NCBI GenBank assembly: GCA_964490365.1
Contig: CAZBAG010000001.1
Span: 56,459 to 120,458 of the forward strand
Direction: 5' to 3'
Length of the DNA: 64,000 nucleotides
DNA from: an uncultured Candidatus Saccharibacteria bacterium
GTDB taxonomy: Bacteria; Patescibacteriota; Minisyncoccia; Phycocordibacterales; CSBR16-119
Position numbers and translations under genes: made by a program
Notes under the pieces: model-generated
What the model saw: only the letters and a program-made list of their open reading frames with translations
The model's database searches: none
Told to the model about the DNA's origin: nothing
In this document: in pieces, positions 35,914 through 48,248 of the stretch
How the letters are laid out: each line of letters opens with the position of its first letter
How positions within the stretch are numbered: position 1 is the stretch's first letter

Positions 35914-37323
35914 ATGAGTGATTCTCAATATAAAGTAACGATTGGGCTCGAAGTCCATGCGGAATTGAAGACGGCTTCAAAGATGTTTTGTGATTGTGTA
36001 AACAATCCAGACGAGGAAAAGCCGAATACCAACATTTGTCCAGTATGTATGGCTCATCCAGGGACTCTGCCGGTCTTGAACAAAAAGGCTATAGAGCACG
36101 TGATAAAAGTCGGACTTGCGATCGGTGCTGATATTGCCAACTTCACTGAATGGGACCGAAAAAACTATTTCTATCCAGATATTCCAAAAGGGTATCAGAT
36201 TTCTCAATACAAATACCCGATCGTTTCCGGCGGTCAGCTTGGCGGAGTAAAGATTACCCGTATTCACTTAGAAGAAGACACGGCAAACAACAAACACACA
36301 GACGAAGCTTCACTTATTGATTTTAATCGGGCTGGTGTGCCTCTCATGGAGCTTGTTACCGAGCCAGTGATTCATTCGGCTGAAGATGCTGGAAAATTTG
36401 GACGTGAACTACAACTGTTACTTCGAACACTTGGTGTGTCAGACGCAAACATGGAAAAAGGAGAAATGCGGGTTGAACTTAACCTGTCTGTTTCTAATAC
36501 AGAAAAATTTGGAACAAAAGTTGAAGTGAAGAATATCAACTCGTTTCGAGCTGTTGAAAAAGCCGCGCGGTTTGAAATAGAACGACATACGAGGCTTCTC
36601 GAAGAGGGAAGAGGAAATGAAATTGTCCAGGAAACTCGTGGTTGGGACGAACATAAAGAAGTAACATTTTCACAACGAACAAAAGAAAACTCAGAAGACT
36701 ATCGATATTTCCCAGAACCAGACTTACCAAAAATGCATTTGCATGAAGTATTTGATTTGGAAAAAATAAAGAGAGAGCTGCCAGAACTTCCATGGCGAAA
36801 GCGTCAGCGATATGAGGCTCTCGGATTAAAATCGGAAGATGTTGAAGTATTTCTCTCTGACTTTGATCTTGCAAATTTCTTTGAAAGTGTGATTGCCGAA
36901 GGGCTCGCAGGAGATACAATTAAAAAGGCGGCTAACTATATATTGTCTGATTTAGTTGGATTACGTTCAGCTCACCCTAATTTTTCATTTCCAAGTGTTA
37001 AAAATTTTGGAAAAATAATAAAAATGCTTGGTTACAACAAGATTAATTCTAGAACAGCAAAAGATTTGATTGCTTTAATTCTTAAAGATGATCAAGATCC
37101 AGAAATATATGCTCATGATCATGGTCTCATTCAAGAATTTGATGAAAATAAACTCAAGGTAATTGCCGAAAAGGTAATTGCTGAAAACTTAAAAGTTGTA
37201 GAAGACTATAAGGCTGGTAATGAAAAATCTATTCAATTTCTTGTTGGTCAATTCATGAAAGAATCAAAAGGAAGTGCGAATCCACAATTAGCGTTACAAA
37301 TATTAAAAGACTTGCTGAATTAG
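35914..37323 (+). CDS. gatB: Asp-tRNA(Asn)/Glu-tRNA(Gln) amidotransferase subunit B
   Basis: YKVTIGLEVHAELKT ... ICPVCMAHPGTLPVLN, with a C-terminal YqeY-like tail. Start set at MSDSQYK. Confidence 0.9.
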   Translation: MSDSQYKVTIGLEVHAELKTASKMFCDCVNNPDEEKPNTNICPVCMAHPGTLPVLNKKAIEHVIKVGLAIGADIANFTEWDRKNYFYPDIPKGYQISQYKYPIVSGGQLGGVKITRIHLEEDTANNKHTDEASLIDFNRAGVPLMELVTEPVIHSAEDAGKFGRELQLLLRTLGVSDANMEKGEMRVELNLSVSNTEKFGTKVEVKNINSFRAVEKAARFEIERHTRLLEEGRGNEIVQETRGWDEHKEVTFSQRTKENSEDYRYFPEPDLPKMHLHEVFDLEKIKRELPELPWRKRQRYEALGLKSEDVEVFLSDFDLANFFESVIAEGLAGDTIKKAANYILSDLVGLRSAHPNFSFPSVKNFGKIIKMLGYNKINSRTAKDLIALILKDDQDPEIYAHDHGLIQEFDENKLKVIAEKVIAENLKVVEDYKAGNEKSIQFLVGQFMKESKGSANPQLALQILKDLLN

Positions 37324-41069: not shown

Positions 41070-42077
41070 ATGGATCATATTGAAATTGAAAAACTCAAAA
41101 ATACCGTAGCGCTCATGATGCAAGACGGAAGGGGTATTCTTGCAGCGGATGAAAGTAATACAACCTGCAATAAAAGATTTCAAACGTTAGGTATTCCAGA
41201 AACTGAAGAAGAGCGACGACGATGGCGTGAACTTCTTTTGTGTGCGCCGCTTATGGAAAAATTTGTGAGCGGGGTTATTTTATTTGACGAGACAATTCGT
41301 CAATCTGATTCACAAGGAAAAAAATTTACAGAAGTTTTAAAAGAAAAAGGCGTTCTTGTTGGGATTAAAGTAGATGAGGGTCTCCAAGAATTTATTGATC
41401 ATCCCGGAGAGCATCTCACTCATGGATTAAACGGTCTTCCTGCAAGACTTCAAGAGTACAAATCTCTTGGTGCAACGTTTGCAAAATGGCGAGCTGCGTA
41501 TGCTATTTCGGAAAGAACTCCAAGTGATGACGCTATACGTGAAAACTCAGAGATTCTTGCGAGATATGCTGTGGCGTGCCAAGAGCACGATATTGTCCCT
41601 ATGGTTGAGCCAGAGGTGTTGCTTGATGGAGGTCATTCTCTTGAAACATCAAAAGATGTTACAAAAAAAGTTTTGAAAGGCTTGTTCGAAGCGCTTGAAA
41701 AGTACCATGTTCACTTGGAAGGGTTAATTCTAAAAACAAGTATGGTCTTGTCGGGAAAAGAAAATCAAAACAGAGCTGATGCACAAGCTGTGGGAGAAGC
41801 AACCGTAGAAGTTCTTAAAGAATGTGTACCAGCGGAGGTTGCCGGGGTGGTGTTCCTTTCTGGGGGGCAAACTCCTGACGAGGCAACGGCAAACTTTAAC
41901 GCTATTGCAAAGCACGAACCGTTACCTTGGCCACTTGCTTTTTCTTTCTCACGAGCAATTCAAAATGATGCTTTGGCAACATGGGCTGGAAAAATATCAA
42001 ACGTTGACCTTGCTCGCGCTGCGTATCTAGAACGACTAAAGTCAAACTCAAAAGCTGATCAAGGATTACTAAATTAA
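41070..42077 (+). CDS. fba: class I fructose-bisphosphate aldolase
   Basis: GILAADES N-terminal motif and a Schiff-base Lys region (LEGLILKTSMV). Confidence 0.9.
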   Translation: MDHIEIEKLKNTVALMMQDGRGILAADESNTTCNKRFQTLGIPETEEERRRWRELLLCAPLMEKFVSGVILFDETIRQSDSQGKKFTEVLKEKGVLVGIKVDEGLQEFIDHPGEHLTHGLNGLPARLQEYKSLGATFAKWRAAYAISERTPSDDAIRENSEILARYAVACQEHDIVPMVEPEVLLDGGHSLETSKDVTKKVLKGLFEALEKYHVHLEGLILKTSMVLSGKENQNRADAQAVGEATVEVLKECVPAEVAGVVFLSGGQTPDEATANFNAIAKHEPLPWPLAFSFSRAIQNDALATWAGKISNVDLARAAYLERLKSNSKADQGLLN

Positions 42078-42446: not shown

Positions 42447-43127
42447 ATGACAGAAATAATACCAGCGATAATGCCAAAAGGTTTAGGGGATTTAGAGGCA
42501 AAAGCTTCTTTGGTATATAAACACGTAAAAACCATTCAACTTGACCTCATGGACGGAGAGTATGTTGAAGCAAAAACATGGCCATTCTTTCTTAAAAATG
42601 CAGAGGATATGGATGGAATTTTGAACGGCAAAGTATTGCCGTTTGCAGAAAGTGTCGACTATGAGCTCGACCTCATGGTGTTGTCTCCTGAACGAGATTT
42701 AAAAAAATATATTGCCATGAGACCGCGCAGGATTATTTTTCATGCACGTTCAATCGAGAATCATGCGTCATTCCTGGAGACACTCAAAAGTTTCGACAAA
42801 GGTGATGAAATAGAATTTGGTGTCGCGATCAGTGCGACAGAAAATTTAGAGTATGCAGATTTTCTTGTAAAAAATTTCAACTTTGTTCAGATTATGGGTA
42901 TTGAAGAAATTGGCAAGCAAGGTGAACTATTTGATGATCGTGTTTTTACACAGATTAAAAGTCTTAAAGAGAAATATCCGGGTGTTATAATCAGTATAGA
43001 CGGAGGGGTGAATCTAGAAAATGCGAAACGACTAAAAGAAGCCGGTGTCGATAGACTTGTATCTGGTTCAACTATTTTTCAAAGTGAAGATAAACAAGAA
43101 ACAATAGCCCAATTAAAAAATGGATAA
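42447..43127 (+). CDS. ribulose-phosphate 3-epimerase-like TIM-barrel protein (Rpe family, non-canonical metal ligands)
   Basis: Alignable to Rpe: IIPAIMPKGLGDL ... LDLMDGEYV ... LDLMV ... IIFHARS ... IDGGVN ... SGSTIF. The two His ligands appear replaced by Gln and Asp. Confidence 0.6.
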   Translation: MTEIIPAIMPKGLGDLEAKASLVYKHVKTIQLDLMDGEYVEAKTWPFFLKNAEDMDGILNGKVLPFAESVDYELDLMVLSPERDLKKYIAMRPRRIIFHARSIENHASFLETLKSFDKGDEIEFGVAISATENLEYADFLVKNFNFVQIMGIEEIGKQGELFDDRVFTQIKSLKEKYPGVIISIDGGVNLENAKRLKEAGVDRLVSGSTIFQSEDKQETIAQLKNG

Positions 43128-43980
43128 TCTATCAGCGCAAAAAGAAAAAGAACTCATGCTCAAGGCGAATGATATACGCCAAAGTATTATTGATATGCTT
43201 GAAGACGCTGGTTCGGGGCACACCGCAGGTCCGCTCGGCATGACAGATATTTTTACTGCTTTCTATTTTCATATTTTAAACCACGATCCAAAACATCCAG
43301 AATGGAGCGAGCGAGATAGGCTTATTCTCTCTAATGGTCACATTGTTCCTGTGCGTTACGCCACTATGGCTCACGCCGGCTATTTGCCTTTGTCAGAGCT
43401 CAAGACACTTCGAAAGTTTGGCTCAAGGCTCCAAGGTCACCCAGAACGTGAAAAACTCCCTGGAATGGAAAACACCTCAGGTCCACTTGGTTCAGGGCTT
43501 TCACAAGCCGCTGGAATAGCTCTATCTGCGCGTATGGACGGCAAAAAGTTCAAAACCTATTGCTTTATGTCTGATGGCGAAATGGACGCTGGAAATATTT
43601 GGGAAGCGGCCATGTTTGCAAGTGCTCACAAACTCTCAAATCTTATTGGTCTGATCGACCGTAACAATATTCAAATTAATGGCATGACAGAACAAGTTAT
43701 GCCGCTTGAACCACTCGCTGATAAATGGCGAGCGTTTGGCTGGAACGTTATTGATATAGACGGACACAACATTGAGGCAATTGTTGACGCAGTCTCAGAA
43801 GCTCATGCTGTTTTTGAGAAACCAACGGTAATCATCGCGCACACTATTCCAGGTAAAGGAATCAAAGAGATTGAGTTTGACTACGAATGGCATGGAAAAC
43901 CGCCAACAAAAGAAGAAGAACAAAAGTTTTTAAAAGAGTTACGAACGCTGCGAGGACAAATTGAAGCAGGGCATAGTTAG
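43120..43980 (+). CDS. transketolase, N-terminal (TPP-binding) subunit of a split enzyme
   Basis: GSGHTAGPLGMTD ... GDGEMDAGNIWEAAMFA ... IGLIDRNNIQI. Confidence 0.9.
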   Translation: MDNLSAQKEKELMLKANDIRQSIIDMLEDAGSGHTAGPLGMTDIFTAFYFHILNHDPKHPEWSERDRLILSNGHIVPVRYATMAHAGYLPLSELKTLRKFGSRLQGHPEREKLPGMENTSGPLGSGLSQAAGIALSARMDGKKFKTYCFMSDGEMDAGNIWEAAMFASAHKLSNLIGLIDRNNIQINGMTEQVMPLEPLADKWRAFGWNVIDIDGHNIEAIVDAVSEAHAVFEKPTVIIAHTIPGKGIKEIEFDYEWHGKPPTKEEEQKFLKELRTLRGQIEAGHS

Positions 43981-44056
43981 TAAAAATTATTAAAAGTTTT
44001 TATTTTTATAGTATGGAAACTAGTAAAAAAAGAATACTTGGTGGTATAGATTACTT

Positions 44057-44467
44057 ATGGTACTTCATGTAATACTAATATTCGTAGGAGTATCTATCTC
44101 ATTTAGTATGGGCTTACTAGATAATATGCCAGAAATAGTTACTTACAGTAAGGTAGACTATTCTAAATCTTATATAGTATGTAATGAAAATAATAAAATT
44201 TACTATTTTGATAAAACAGGCCTTGATATTAGTGAAAATTATTTAGACGTTAGTAGTTTCATAAAAGCCAAGAACATTTGTGGGAAGGGTTCTGATAGTT
44301 TTGAGACCTACATTTCTAGATACGATGAAAAAATAGGCTCGTGGTTAGATGCAGTTTTATATACTTTGCTAGGTTTACTTATAACATTCTCAATAAGTTA
44401 TTTACTTAAGTCGACCTTTAATTTTATTGTATTTAATGAAAAATTTAAATTACCATTTAAAAAGTAA
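44057..44467 (+). CDS. hypothetical membrane protein (136 aa) inserted between the transketolase halves; very AT-rich
   Basis: TM helices at both ends. Asn/Tyr/Lys-rich codon usage. Confidence 0.45.
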   Translation: MVLHVILIFVGVSISFSMGLLDNMPEIVTYSKVDYSKSYIVCNENNKIYYFDKTGLDISENYLDVSSFIKAKNICGKGSDSFETYISRYDEKIGSWLDAVLYTLLGLLITFSISYLLKSTFNFIVFNEKFKLPFKK

Positions 44468-44468
44468 A

Positions 44469-45470
44469 ATGTTAAACGAAAATTCAAAACTTAATAATCA
44501 TGTTTTTGATACTGAGAAACTTGAGCAGGTACCAACTCGAGATGGCTTTGGTCATGGTTTGGTTGAGGCGGGAGAACTTGATCCAAAGGTCGTCGCCCTG
44601 TGCGCAGACTTAGCCGAGTCTACTCGAGCGCATTGGTTTAAAGAAAAATTCCCAGAACGGTATGTTGAACTCGGCGTGGCAGAACAAAATCTTGCAGCTG
44701 TTGCGTCTGGCATGGCTAACTATGGGAAAATTCCATTCATTATGTCGTACGCAGCATTTTCACCAGGAAGAAACAATGAACAGATCAGAACAACTATTTC
44801 TCTAAATAACGTGCCTGTGAAGGTTGTGGGTTGTCACGCGGGTATTTCCGTTGGTCCAGATGGTGCAACACACCAAGCACTTGAAGATATTGCTCTCATG
44901 CGTACACAACCAAATATGACCGTCATTGTTCCTGCAGATTCTGAAGAAGCGAGAAAAGCTACTCTTGCTGTGGCAAAAAATGGTAAGCCAACATATCTTC
45001 GTTTGGGTCGGGACAAGTCGCCAGTCTTCACGACAAAGGAAACACCGTTTCAAATTGGAAAAGCTCAAATTTTGTTTAAATCAAAAAATCCAATCGTCGT
45101 GATTGTTGCTTGTGGAACACTCGTTCACAATGCATTGCTTGCCGCACATGATCTTGAGAAAGAAGGACTAGGAACCGCTGTTATAAATCTTGCAACGATA
45201 AAACCTTTTGATACAAGTATTTTGCCATTTATAAAAGAAGTAGGTGCGTTAGTTACCGCAGAAGAACATCAAATACGAGGTGGTATGGGAAGTGCCGTGG
45301 CAGAAGAGATGGCGAAATATTTTCCAGTACCACAAGAGTTCATTGGTGTTGATGACAGGTTTGGGCAGTCTGGTAATACGAAAGAGCTCATGGCTGAATA
45401 TGGTATGGATGTTGCGCACATTAAGCTTGCCGTGAAAAAAGTTTTCAAAAGAAAAAATGGAGGTATGTAG
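44469..45470 (+). CDS. transketolase, C-terminal (pyrimidine-binding) subunit
   Basis: Start set at MLNENSK. Conserved LGVAEQNL ... MSYAAF ... VGPDGATHQALEDIALMRTQPNMTV motifs. Confidence 0.9.
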   Translation: MLNENSKLNNHVFDTEKLEQVPTRDGFGHGLVEAGELDPKVVALCADLAESTRAHWFKEKFPERYVELGVAEQNLAAVASGMANYGKIPFIMSYAAFSPGRNNEQIRTTISLNNVPVKVVGCHAGISVGPDGATHQALEDIALMRTQPNMTVIVPADSEEARKATLAVAKNGKPTYLRLGRDKSPVFTTKETPFQIGKAQILFKSKNPIVVIVACGTLVHNALLAAHDLEKEGLGTAVINLATIKPFDTSILPFIKEVGALVTAEEHQIRGGMGSAVAEEMAKYFPVPQEFIGVDDRFGQSGNTKELMAEYGMDVAHIKLAVKKVFKRKNGGM

Positions 45471-45475
45471 AAACT

Positions 45476-45503
45476 AAAACCCACAAATGTGGGTTTTAGT
45501 TTT
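45476..45503. terminator. bidirectional terminator (AAACCCAC-aaat-GTGGGTTT)
   Basis: 8-bp stem between convergent genes. Confidence 0.7.
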
Positions 45504-46101
45504 GTTCAAAATTATACCTTTCATTTCCTACAGTTTTTTCTTCGTCCGGAATCTCTTTCTTTATTAGATTTGTTAGTAAGTTTAGAGTCTCTTCTATTTC
45601 TCCAAGTTCTTTATATAGAGGAACAATTTCTATTTCACCTTTTTCAAGATTTTTTCTTAATCTTTCAACTCTATCTTCAGCCCCCCTCATTATTTCTACT
45701 GTAATCATGTCTCTATCTTTCGAAACAAGATCTTTTGCATTTAGGTTTTTTACAGATTTCTCTGCGCCAGACTTACTATATCTTAATTCATTTAAAATTA
45801 TTTGTCTTTCTTTTATCTCTTCTTTTAGTTTTCCGTATTCTATTCTAAGGCTATTTATTCTTTCAGTTAGTTCATTGTCTCTTTTTTCTTCTTCCCAAGA
45901 CCCGTCGTTTGCAACTGCGCCATCTCTATCGATAATTTCTCTTGTTTTAATTTCTTGATTTAAACCTCCAACAAAATCGTTAGAAGAAATATCTCCATGT
46001 ATCTCTAAATCTTTCTGTTTGTTTAAAATTTCTTCTGTACTTCTATCGTTCGGCTCAAAACCTTTTTCGTTTTTGTTAAAAATCTTTTTAAATAGTTCCA
46101 T
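45496..46101 (-). CDS. hypothetical acidic coiled-coil protein (201 aa)
   Basis: Last gene of a three-gene minus-strand operon; 7-nt spacer from the gene upstream. Confidence 0.5.
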   Translation of the reverse strand: MELFKKIFNKNEKGFEPNDRSTEEILNKQKDLEIHGDISSNDFVGGLNQEIKTREIIDRDGAVANDGSWEEEKRDNELTERINSLRIEYGKLKEEIKERQIILNELRYSKSGAEKSVKNLNAKDLVSKDRDMITVEIMRGAEDRVERLRKNLEKGEIEIVPLYKELGEIEETLNLLTNLIKKEIPDEEKTVGNERYNFEQN

Positions 46102-46108
46102 AGATTTT

Positions 46109-46459
46109 TTAGTTTAAATTAGGGTCTATTAATACCGAATCAGGGTGTATCATTTTTAGCATATCTCTTAATTCTTTTACTCTGGCCTCTATTTTTTCAT
46201 CCTGAGGCAGGGATTCGTAGTACTCTAAAGCCTCTTGTATGTCTTGAATTCTTTGTGCAATAGTTTCTGATCCGTCTTTTTCGTTACTGCTTAAAATTTT
46301 ATCTTTAGAGTTATTTTCAACACTAGCATTAAAGTTTAATTGATCTGTGTAATCTTCTAAAGAAAGTTCTTTTTCTGTCAATGAAAAATCTACATGTTCA
46401 TCAATTTTTTCATCCTTTTTAAATTTATTAATCCTTTCTGGCTTTTCAAAAAATCCCAT
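46109..46459 (-). CDS. hypothetical acidic protein (116 aa), N-terminally similar to the downstream 201-aa protein
   Basis: MGFFEKPER here versus KGFEPNDR in the other. Abuts the PfkB gene stop. Confidence 0.5.
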   Translation of the reverse strand: MGFFEKPERINKFKKDEKIDEHVDFSLTEKELSLEDYTDQLNFNASVENNSKDKILSSNEKDGSETIAQRIQDIQEALEYYESLPQDEKIEARVKELRDMLKMIHPDSVLIDPNLN

Positions 46460-46460
46460 A

Positions 46461-47459
46461 TTAATTTATTTTCTTAGGTTTGTAATAGGTTGGTGCTTTT
46501 GCCAGCCATTCCTCCAGCTTTCTTCTCCTTAAAAGACCTTTTTGTGCTCCCACATATTGTACCACGGACATTGAGTTGACTGGCCCCCACATGAGAGCTT
46601 GTTCTACAGGCATTCCCAAAGCCAAAGCCGATGTAAATGTGCTTGAAAATGAATCTCCTGCACCAGTTCGTTCAACTGGTGGTGCTGGGTCGGGATACAT
46701 CGGAATATAGAGCATGTCTTGTCCGTCATACGTGTATGCACCATCTGGGCCGTCGGTAATAACAACTATTTTAGGGCCAAGATTTTTAATGCCCGATAAA
46801 AGATTTTTAATCTCTTTGTCTTTTGAATTGAGTATTTTTTGAGCCTCTTCTTTGTTACAGAAAAAAACGTGAGAGTTTTCATATAAACTTTTTAGTTTCT
46901 CGGCACCTAAACTTATTTGAAATGTTCCCGGTTGGAAAGCAAGTTTTACGTTGTTTTCTTGTACATACTTGGCAATGTCTAATTGATAGTCTAAAGAATT
47001 TTCTGCCAGAGAAGAGAGATATATCCATTCTGGAGCTTCTGAACCGTTTAGAACATCGAGCGTGTAGTTGAATTGTGCGTGTTTAATCAAAATAGTTCGT
47101 TCTGCCTCAAAACTTAATACATAGTGATAGTTAGTCTTAAAACCATCTTGTGTTTGTACAAGATCTGTTTTGATACCGTTTTCCTTAAGCGCGGTGATGC
47201 ATTCTTTTCCATTGTCATCGTTACCAACATGCGTGATGATTGCAGATTCGAGCCCAAGTCTCGACGCAGAGACTGCGGCATTTGGACTGTTGCCAACGGC
47301 TTTTACTACTTCGACATCTTTGTAGGGAATTTTGTCTCCAAATCGCATTGAAATGGTGCAATTGTCGTCATTAATATCACAAGACACCCTTGCATCTTGT
47401 AGCTGGATAAATGCATCAGTAACAATGTCACCAATAGCTAAAAATTTTACACGTTTCAT
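46461..47459 (-). CDS. PfkB-family carbohydrate/nucleoside kinase (ribokinase-like)
   Basis: N-terminal GD motif (LAIGDIVTD) and C-terminal anion-hole motif RTGAGDSF. Start set at MKRVKF. Confidence 0.8.
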   Translation of the reverse strand: MKRVKFLAIGDIVTDAFIQLQDARVSCDINDDNCTISMRFGDKIPYKDVEVVKAVGNSPNAAVSASRLGLESAIITHVGNDDNGKECITALKENGIKTDLVQTQDGFKTNYHYVLSFEAERTILIKHAQFNYTLDVLNGSEAPEWIYLSSLAENSLDYQLDIAKYVQENNVKLAFQPGTFQISLGAEKLKSLYENSHVFFCNKEEAQKILNSKDKEIKNLLSGIKNLGPKIVVITDGPDGAYTYDGQDMLYIPMYPDPAPPVERTGAGDSFSSTFTSALALGMPVEQALMWGPVNSMSVVQYVGAQKGLLRRRKLEEWLAKAPTYYKPKKIN

Positions 47460-47589
47460 TATGAAGATATTGTAACACTTGTATGTAAGTGAGCGGGGAA
47501 TGGAATCCACAGATATTGACAACCATCTTCGAAAAGAGGTAAAATTTTCCTCTGACGTTCTTTTTCACAAACCATCAAAAACCAAAATC

Positions 47590-47922
47590 ATGACGTTGAC
47601 GCGCGCAAACATTCCGAGTATTGTTCCCGACTCACTTCATACTCGGCCCATTGAGGCTGGTGATAGGCCACCTCTTCGCTCAGTGAGTGAAATAAGGCAA
47701 CAGATTCAAACTGTCGAAGCCGAAATACAAGGACACATGAATCTTGTTGCGGCAGCCAGTCGTAGTAGTCGAAAGGGTAGCCCGGCGGGCATCGATCTCA
47801 ACAGGCTTGTTGCCAACGGACGTGGTCCGGCGTTGGAGAAAGCCCGGGAAAAACTTGGAGCGTTGCAAAAGGAATTGAAGGTTGTCGAAGATGGGGAAAA
47901 GTTACTCGTATCCTTCAAATAA
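47590..47922 (+). CDS. hypothetical protein (110 aa from MTLTRANIPS), GC-richer patch, strong terminator; an alternative upstream start at 47479 is possible
   Basis: ORF followed by a perfect 10-bp terminator. Confidence 0.4.
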   Translation: MTLTRANIPSIVPDSLHTRPIEAGDRPPLRSVSEIRQQIQTVEAEIQGHMNLVAAASRSSRKGSPAGIDLNRLVANGRGPALEKAREKLGALQKELKVVEDGEKLLVSFK

Positions 47923-47936
47923 GCTTACAAGGCTTG

Positions 47937-47970
47937 AAAAGCCATCCACATACCAGTGGATGGCTTTTTT
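47937..47970 (+). terminator. intrinsic terminator (AGCCATCCAC-atacca-GTGGATGGCT, then TTTTTT)
   Basis: Perfect 10-bp stem followed by T6. Confidence 0.85.
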
Positions 47971-47978
47971 GCTATACT

Positions 47979-48248
47979 ATGTTCATGAACAACGAAAAAC
48001 CTAAAAATCCACATTTACGAATTGAATATATGAAAGATGGCCTTGGTGAAAAGAGCGACTCAAAGGCTGAAGATATTGATTTTTCAGTTCCACAAGAAAT
48101 TACTCCTGAATTTTTGAGTAAAATAGAATTGTCTAACCCAGAGAAAGAACAAGAAAAAAACGAACTTTTAAAAATGTTAAGCGAAGAAACTGATCTAGAG
48201 AAAAGACAACAAATACAATTCGCATTACGGCAGTTACTTCTATCATAA
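47979..48248 (+). CDS. hypothetical small protein (about 89 aa, starting MFMNNEKPKN)
   Basis: The ORF-track start at 47934 lies inside the terminator hairpin, so the start was moved to the first ATG after the TATACT box. Confidence 0.4.
   Translation: MFMNNEKPKNPHLRIEYMKDGLGEKSDSKAEDIDFSVPQEITPEFLSKIELSNPEKEQEKNELLKMLSEETDLEKRQQIQFALRQLLLS

Follow-up and report, generated by a model that had tools for sequence, protein, structure and literature searches.

Variable small-protein genes behind a PfkB-family kinase in an uncultured Candidatus Saccharibacteria bacterium and its relatives

A 64,000-nucleotide stretch of the genome of an uncultured Candidatus Saccharibacteria bacterium (assembly GCA_964490365.1, contig CAZBAG010000001.1, positions 56,459 to 120,458; the whole 64-kb stretch is called the window below) contains a minus-strand operon in which a gene for a PfkB-family carbohydrate kinase is followed by two genes for small acidic proteins. 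The interval between the kinase gene and the convergent gene for the C-terminal half of transketolase, termed the slot, holds different small genes in close relatives, which exchange them as cassettes, and the encoded proteins share conserved terminal peptides. The bacterium is an ultrasmall member of the Patescibacteria (Paceibacteria). Fetched loci of relatives are designated by L numbers. The following features make up the locus in the window.

44427-45470, plus strand: gene for the C-terminal half of transketolase, the convergent flank that closes the slot; the ATG at 44469 is the likely true start
45471-45502, both strands: bidirectional intrinsic terminator, a perfect 15-bp inverted repeat with arms 45471-45485 and 45488-45502
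45496-46101, minus strand: gene for a 201-aa acidic coiled-coil protein (start MELFKKIFNKNEKGFEPNDR), the long member of the superfamily described below, with ten homologues, a family alignment and a substitution-rate estimate
46109-46459, minus strand: gene for a 116-aa acidic protein (start MGFFEKPERINKF), the short superfamily member ('FFKK...N'), with eight homologues and the same kinds of evidence
46461-47459, minus strand: first gene of the operon, encoding the 332-aa PfkB-family carbohydrate kinase (Pfam PF00294)
47469-47477, minus strand: candidate extended -10 box TGTTACAAT, read from the sequence and ending 9 nt ahead of the kinase ATG
47516-47545, plus strand: promoter-like site (TTGACA, 18 nt, TAAAAT; 11 of 12 matches), which serves divergent small genes and bounds the control region

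The first-pass annotation, which was made from the sequence alone, had described three close-packed genes, and this arrangement was borne out, with the open reading frames (ORFs) at the positions given above and spacers of 1 nt (46460) and 7 nt (46102-46108). Co-transcription of the three genes, also proposed there, is supported by the tight spacing, the absence of an internal terminator, the conserved extended -10 box and a single hairpin terminator after the last gene. The TGTTACAAT box was not called in a consensus promoter scan because it lacks a -35 hexamer; it is a candidate promoter, and a TGnTACAAT-like box is found at the same distance from the kinase gene in L007, L084/L008, L009, L042, L010/L004, L011, L093 and L037. 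Inspection of the upstream regions found no Shine-Dalgarno-like sequence ahead of any of the three genes. Together with the proximity of the -10 box to the ATG, this points to a leaderless or near-leaderless mRNA, the distal genes of which would need termination-reinitiation for their translation.

The arms of the hairpin at the end of the operon are 100% complementary, with U-tracts following on both strands, and the hairpin folds with -19.3 kcal/mol (z -5.2) when read on the minus strand and with -20.9 kcal/mol (z -4.6) on the plus strand. One of the arms includes the AAC codon for the final Asn of the 201-aa protein together with the stop codon of its gene. The same hairpin occurs after the last slot gene in L009, L010, L004, L084, L089 and L091, and it is predicted to be a terminator common to the operon and to the convergent transketolase gene. 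Orthologues of the latter, containing the Pfam domains Transket_pyr and Transketolase_C, occupy the same position in L001, L004, L084, L089, L090, L091 and L093.

The kinase, which starts MKRVKF, matches Pfam PF00294 with an E-value of 3.6e-35 and 122.2 bits (cut-off 25.8). A longer TTG-initiated ORF (to 47522) was ruled out in favour of the ATG start because the orthologues all begin MK.VKFLAIGD. The PfkB C-terminal signature with the catalytic Asp (xTGAGD) is present in the translation as ERTGAGDSF and is kept in L093. The protein falls far under the cut-off of every substrate-specific NCBIfam equivalog, the best being ribokinase (103.8 vs 299.65 bits), and the closest PDB structures (IolC-like, fructokinase, MJ0406) are matched only at E ~1e-11. 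The gene belongs to a cluster that also encodes GAPDH, RpiB, class I aldolase, Rpe and the split transketolase. In more distant orthologues (L020, L023, L025, L030, L039, L054-L056, L060, L070, L071 and L079) a gene resembling class II fructose/tagatose-bisphosphate aldolase, with the N-terminus ...EILLxATREHWSTGHFNASE, lies directly 3' of the kinase gene, often with overlapping stop and start codons. Membership of this cluster and the aldolase neighbour in distant orthologues make the enzyme a candidate sugar-phosphate kinase of the same network, and the adjacency of the two genes suggests that the kinase may make a ketose bisphosphate and could replace PFK-1. According to genome surveys, Patescibacteria usually lack PFK-1 and route glycolysis via the pentose-phosphate pathway (PMC11809585, PMC9166423).

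In the 116-aa protein the N-terminal peptide MGFFEKP is followed by the motif SLEDYTDQLN (residues 33-42) and a helical hairpin (63-104), and the chain ends IDPNLN; the 201-aa protein comprises the N-terminal peptide MELFKKIF, the motif SSNDFVGGLN at residues 39-48, heptad helices and the C-terminus YNFEQN. Isoelectric points are 4.55 and 4.93, and Asp plus Glu account for 24% and 23% of residues, respectively; Cys is absent from both. Eight homologues of the 116-aa protein and ten of the 201-aa protein were found among 5.8e9 proteins, and the family alignments contain many invariant columns. Both small genes are under purifying selection and evolve faster than the kinase gene: relative to L084, the closest relative, the ratio of non-synonymous to synonymous substitution rates (dN/dS) is 0.185 for the 116-aa gene, 0.111 for the 201-aa gene and about 0.045 for the kinase gene. 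The lack of annotation and of known domains is all that would favour regarding the two as chance ORFs in AT-rich DNA rather than genes. Such a reading has a negligible probability and is already refuted by the conservation of the ORFs in 8-10 or more independent assemblies with invariant columns, by dN/dS values of 0.11-0.19 and by the conserved gene junctions.

Both proteins had been predicted to form coiled coils. For the 201-aa protein this is well supported by strong heptad periodicity at residues 64-100 and 134-165 and by AlphaFold2 (AF2) helices at 69-122, 132-153 and 160-178. Support is weaker for the 116-aa protein, the AF2 model of which is helix-free before residue 35 and poorly predicted at 48-63, ahead of the hairpin. 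The models, built from shallow family alignments, are of low confidence, with predicted local distance difference test (pLDDT) scores of 61.6 for the 116-aa and 50 for the 201-aa protein. No signal peptide or transmembrane segment was found in the slot proteins.

The two small proteins had also been taken for paralogues on the strength of a GFFEKPER motif in one and a GFEPNDR motif in the other. These motifs are not homologous, and profile alignment instead places MGFFEK of the 116-aa protein against MELFKK of the 201-aa protein; distant paralogy itself is retained by sensitive methods. BLASTP of one protein against the other found no relationship (E 5.3). Alignment of the two family alignments with hhalign gave 84% probability and an E-value of 7.5e-6 over residues 1-56 vs 1-50. 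When the 201-aa profile was searched against 3,941 ORFs from the window and the fetched loci, the first hits after its own family were a 165/166-aa slot family (E 2.6e-6) and then the 116-aa family (E 2e-3). With the 201-aa protein as query, jackhmmer reaches convergence with the family of the query, the 165-aa family and the 116-aa family, and recruits no unrelated ORFs. We therefore regard the 116-aa and 201-aa proteins, on moderate evidence, as distant paralogues, based on the N-terminal module and the intermediate 165-aa family.

The shared module consists of M-x-F-F-K/E-K-x-x-P, followed by an acidic S-[IL]-E-D-Y-x3-L-N at about residues 35-48, which lies within a poorly predicted segment. 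Beyond the module, superfamily members have from one to three heptad helices that differ in length, and they end in a short aromatic-x(1-4)-Asn-COOH tail. When 1.84 billion representative proteins were searched exhaustively with a profile, 23 representatives were found at E<=1e-3, and a literature search for the small-protein family found nothing; as judged from these searches, the superfamily is very small and previously undescribed. The exhaustive search also matched P0035, a TrbI/VirB10-like protein of 929 aa with more than 10 SHOCT-like repeats (NASVDDYAKELDAAVKAG-ISPATAEKLL), in which the family motif S-x-E-D-Y-x-x-E-L-N is matched seven times. Only a short motif (S-x-D-D-Y-x-x-E-L) is alike, and P0035 was treated as probably a repeat artefact rather than a family member.

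Searches of Pfam, NCBIfam, PADLOC and PHROGs with both small proteins returned only sub-threshold coiled-coil noise, PADLOC and PHROGs giving no match better than E 0.011, and Pfam likewise gave only noise for ten more slot proteins. PDB searches with profiles of both family alignments found only generic coiled coils of the GCN4 type, and no relatives of the small proteins were found among IMG/VR viral contigs. These results bear on the suggestion of the first-pass annotation that the two proteins are a membrane-remodelling pair similar to PspA or ESCRT-III, with PspA/Vipp1, DivIVA and ZapA named as comparisons. The proteins are indeed helical and heptad-rich, measure about 200 aa in the case of the longer one and have a Phe-containing N-terminal peptide, and MGFFEK and MELFKK superficially resemble the starts MGIFSRF and MGLFDRL of PspA/Vipp1. 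Neither PspA_IM30 (PF04012) nor Snf7 (PF03357) is matched by either protein in Pfam at E<=1, nor by eight other slot families at E<=0.1; NCBIfam gave only sub-threshold noise, in which none of these families appears. DivIVA (PF05103) and ZapA (PF05164) are matched neither in Pfam nor by PDB profiles and are absent from the Foldseek top 50. When the PDB was searched with Foldseek, neither model had a hit at E<=1e-3, and PspA/Vipp1 was absent from the top 50, the only ESCRT-III protein there being CHMP4B, matched as a hairpin at E 3.3 and probability 0.14; this fold test is weak because of the low confidence of the AF2 models (pLDDT 50 and 62). Moreover, a Pro within about 7-12 residues after the N-terminal peptide and then a poorly predicted acidic segment take the place of the continuous alpha0-alpha1 of PspA, the sizes range over 116-207 aa, and the genes are lineage-restricted, dispensable and swapped or absent in close relatives. 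A PspA/Vipp1/ESCRT-III-, DivIVA- or ZapA-like role in membrane remodelling or division is largely refuted at the level of sequence and is considered highly improbable.

The comparison drew on kinase orthologues from 33 GTDB genomes and from 44 metagenome contigs; they come from metagenome-assembled genomes (MAGs) of Paceibacteria/Parcubacteria type, and the exact locus of the window is carried by the SRR10036056-63 sample series. On every sufficiently long contig with a superfamily member, the order is kinase, small gene or genes, convergent transketolase C-terminal half, and the slot position also holds in L095-L097 and in L093, despite a kinase of only 62% identity and a different upstream neighbourhood in the latter. 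Small acidic ORFs directly behind the kinase gene are confined to a close clade, with kinases at least 78% identical and ending YYKPKKIN, and to a few distant lineages (L027, L034, L037 and L093-L097; kinase identity 49-62% where measurable). In the other orthologues the kinase gene is followed by the class II aldolase-like gene or directly by the convergent transketolase gene. The pairing of the small genes with a PfkB kinase, described at first as unusual, is thus conserved for every member found, but within a narrow Paceibacteria set, and most orthologous kinases lack the small genes. In the close clade and in L093-L097 the slot genes start in overlap with the preceding stop codon or 0-7 nt past it, with a maximum of about 20 nt in three distant lineages. 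In two Paceibacterota MAGs, L022 (5001-6490) and L036 (5001-6973), the kinase frame is interrupted, with 223 and 79 aa, respectively, before the stop, and the slot genes are fragmented, L036 having pieces of both the 116-aa and the 201-aa families; either decay of the two loci or frameshifts in the assemblies would account for this.

By BLASTP, the slot proteins form about ten groups, which are freely combined in slots of 0.35-1.1 kb containing one to three genes for proteins of 50-220 aa. The combinations are listed by the lengths of the products in aa.

116 + 201: window, L084, L091
165 + 207: L010, L078
88 + 205: L089
116 + 114: L004
55 + 83 + 114: L009
55 + 116 + 186: L007, L092
61 + 80 + 190: L075
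220 (fusion): L008
154 + 98: L076

In the bootstrapped kinase tree, sisters with bootstrap values of 95-100% differ in the contents of their slots, namely the window and L007 (98%), L008 and L084 (100%), and L009 and L089 (100%), and L004, L010 and L091 are grouped at 100% despite different slots. Kinase genes about 95% identical in DNA can precede unrelated cassettes. The borders of the exchange were located with blastn. Between L008 and L084, identity of 95.7% extends 4 nt into the gene that follows the kinase gene; similarity is absent across the slot, and identity returns, at 96.5%, just before the stop codon of the transketolase gene. Identity between L004 and L091 extends through the common 116-aa gene, breaks at the last gene and resumes 9 nt (N-Q-N) before its stop codon, and that between L010 and L091 stops 16 nt into the middle gene. 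Because the breaks fall inside the first few or the last few codons, start and end codons are common to all cassettes.

Among the called genes and Pfam hits of the flanks, which cover about 8 kb on each side in L001 as well as in L004 and about 6 kb in L084, no integrase, transposase or other mobile-element genes were found, and housekeeping genes only are present. Given the sharp breaks at the borders and the absence of an integrase, the cassettes would most simply be exchanged by homologous recombination in the flanks, and the slot, as judged from its organisation, is a miniature replacement-type islet. The 'minimal mobile elements' of Neisseria are replacement-type flexible genomic islets of this kind. 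As in these, unrelated content is found at one site between core genes, close relatives differ, and homology breaks sharply at the borders with no integrase. Unlike them, the slot is tiny, its cassettes are situated inside an operon within translational-coupling distance, its breakpoints are in first and last codons, and the cassettes are themselves distant paralogues. In L075 about 28 nt from the 3' end of the kinase gene (…ATTACAAACCTAAGAAGATAAATTAGT) recur at 546-572, where they separate the 61-aa slot gene from the 80-aa one. Direct repeats of the kinase end thus enclose the 61-aa gene, a footprint left by the insertion of a cassette. The 170-aa slot protein of L037 (L037_170) is a singleton among the 5.8e9 proteins.

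Asn is the final residue in 36 of 37 superfamily proteins, the lone exception appearing to be truncated, and the tails take forms such as Y-D-F-N-Q-N, I-D-P-N-L-N and F-D-P-x-S-N. Four further slot proteins (L027_146, L034_168, L037_164 and L037_170) have no detectable similarity to the superfamily, yet end in L-N, encoded with other codons and followed by other stop codons. The fetched loci contain 412 non-overlapping ORFs; LN or QN is the terminus of 16 of them, 14 being slot genes. The codons at this end are narrow as well. In the close clade a final Leu is always encoded by TTA or CTA, which make up 25% of Leu codons in the window, the terminal Asn codon is AAC in 23 of 27 cases vs 41% in the window, and the 3' ends are almost always YTA AAC TAA or CAA AAC TAA (window 45496-45503 and 46109-46116; L004-L097). 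This restriction may reflect a requirement of termination-reinitiation or the homogenisation of junctions by recombination. Overlap with the terminator was rejected as the full cause of the C-terminal Q-N; it fits the last gene in several genomes, but not the internal genes, and it fails to explain the C-terminus in L093, where the stop codon of the transketolase gene abuts that of the small gene.

In the window, class I aldolase (...DQGLLN, 41070-42077) and GatB (...LKDLLN, 35743-37323) also end in L-N. A genome-wide C-terminal 'LN' sorting tag was rejected because aldolase orthologues end ...KGLL, and the aldolase terminus is accordingly seen as a coincidence. A transfer-messenger RNA (tmRNA) with a tag ending like the motif was considered, and none is present in the window, for which Rfam identified two tRNAs as the only RNA elements.

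An invariant terminal residue is also seen in proteins whose C-terminus is the site of chemistry. Pup, UBact and the precursors of microcin C all need a single, invariant amide residue at the C-terminus for their function, for example the terminal Gln/Glu in Pup and the terminal Asn in the microcin C precursors. By analogy, the terminal Asn of the slot proteins could be a site of activation or conjugation, the proteins being modifiers or precursors and possibly substrates of the kinase. In line with this, Asn-COOH is present in 36/37 and is kept via different codons in distant lineages, the proteins are fast-evolving, acidic and partly disordered like Pup, and their genes are strictly adjacent to that of an ATP-dependent enzyme. 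However, among the called genes of the operon and of the relatives' flanks of about 8 kb no PafA/Dop-like ligase and no ThiF/MccB-like adenylating enzyme was found, and PfkB enzymes (Pfam PF00294) are small-molecule kinases. The slot proteins, at 116-200 aa with coiled coils, are much longer than the known precursors and end in aromatic-x(1-4)-N rather than in GGQ/GGE or a heptapeptide-like end, and the codon bias suggests that the conservation has, in part, a cause at the level of RNA. Chemistry at the terminal Asn is thus regarded as unlikely. A more specific form of it is a new system of protein or peptide activation, with a logic like that of Pup or microcin C but other enzymology, in which swappable carriers would have their terminal Asn activated or modified by the kinase or by a different enzyme and cassette exchange would diversify their 'payload'. 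The Asn kept across families that are otherwise without detectable similarity makes this conceivable, and it is slightly less likely again.

Our tentative first choice is that the slot proteins are non-enzymatic adaptors or tethers that act via their terminal peptides and are co-translated with the kinase, which would be their most likely client. The slot genes would be translated by termination-reinitiation coupled to the kinase gene, in the manner expected of genes without Shine-Dalgarno sequences. The two conserved ends would be docking peptides, joined by heptad helices that would self-associate as a spacer and could diverge freely; constancy at the ends and variability between them are the pattern expected of a linear-motif adaptor. 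The adaptors would tether or regulate the kinase translated from the shared mRNA, for instance by holding it at the membrane by their aromatic-basic N-terminus. The slot proteins could also form the regulatory or scaffold module suggested by the first-pass annotation. CP12, a small disordered regulator that bridges GAPDH and phosphoribulokinase and works through Cys pairs, offers an analogy in function only. Like CP12, the slot proteins are small, acidic and partly disordered with conserved terminal peptides, and they are tied to a sugar-phosphate kinase and to enzymes of central carbon metabolism (here GAPDH, aldolase, Rpe, RpiB and transketolase). Unlike CP12, to which they have no sequence similarity, they are Cys-free and contain heptad helices.

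Several observations weigh against an adaptor role. The kinase is conserved (83-91% identity) while one to three downstream proteins are replaced wholesale, and the slot proteins are absent from most orthologous kinases and swapped in others, which indicates that the kinase can do without these proteins. The recombination breakpoints fall at the very codons, the first and the last, that are conserved, and the codon bias there exceeds the need of the amino acids, so some of the conservation seen in the motifs may lie at the level of DNA or RNA. Vertical inheritance of a syntenic region could by itself account for the constant position. The AF2 models are of low confidence.

Nearly as likely is a reading in which a housekeeping operon with constitutive expression carries the slot as a small flexible islet at its 3' end and the slot genes are passengers with a function unrelated to the kinase, which would supply only transcription and translational coupling. 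The genes would then be under diversifying or frequency-dependent selection, and host-interaction effectors, anti-defence or immunity-like proteins and stress proteins are candidates. The different slots behind well-supported sister kinases (bootstrap 95-100%) favour it, as do the unrelated slots of L008 and L084 between flanks of 95.7% and 96.5% identity, with breakpoints at the gene ends, and the free combination of families in first, middle and last positions. The same holds for the 61-aa gene of L075 between duplicated kinase 3' ends, for the singleton L037_170 and for other variable small ORFs that interrupt the same conserved gene cluster. The lack of a signal peptide or transmembrane segment, of a PADLOC/PHROG match passing E 1e-2, of relatives on viral contigs and of an integrase or mobile-element gene in the flanks counts against passengers of these kinds. 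So does the fact that members are found solely directly behind this kinase, even at 62% kinase identity.

Patescibacteria genomes are rich in small proteins of unassigned role, and the present set gains diagnostic motifs, a fixed address and a documented mode of evolution, that of a miniature cassette site inside an operon with exchange breakpoints in the first and last codons. It offers a tractable case for how reduced, probably naturally competent episymbionts diversify their genes, and for whether the conserved terminal peptides dock and regulate or localise the kinase in a phylum usually devoid of PFK-1. If the proteins are mere passengers, the value is limited to specialists in genome evolution.

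Two more small genes, divergent from the kinase gene, are located upstream of an FAD-linked oxidase gene (window 47479-48248, plus strand), and their position is conserved across the clade (L001 5611-6377, L004 6261-6879, L084 3848-4500, L089 1858-2487, L091 1841-2080). The second of them often ends ...ALRQLLLS or ...YRALAFS. Searches of Pfam, NCBIfam, PADLOC and PHROGs with these genes gave no match above noise. A block, GTCAATAYCTGTGGAT, in the divergent promoter region (47500-47521; GTCAATATCTGTGGATTCC when read on the minus strand) is conserved in most relatives and includes the TTGACA -35 box of the plus-strand promoter. Its conserved CTGTGGAT part could be an operator.

The transketolase of the same cluster is split into genes for an N-terminal and a C-terminal half (window 43120-45470, plus strand), and the gap between them (44057-44467) holds variable small ORFs. 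It contains a gene for a 136-aa putative membrane protein in the window, DUF6176 and CBU_0592-like genes in L001/L089, and others in L084/L090. This gap looks like a second variable slot of the same conserved gene cluster.

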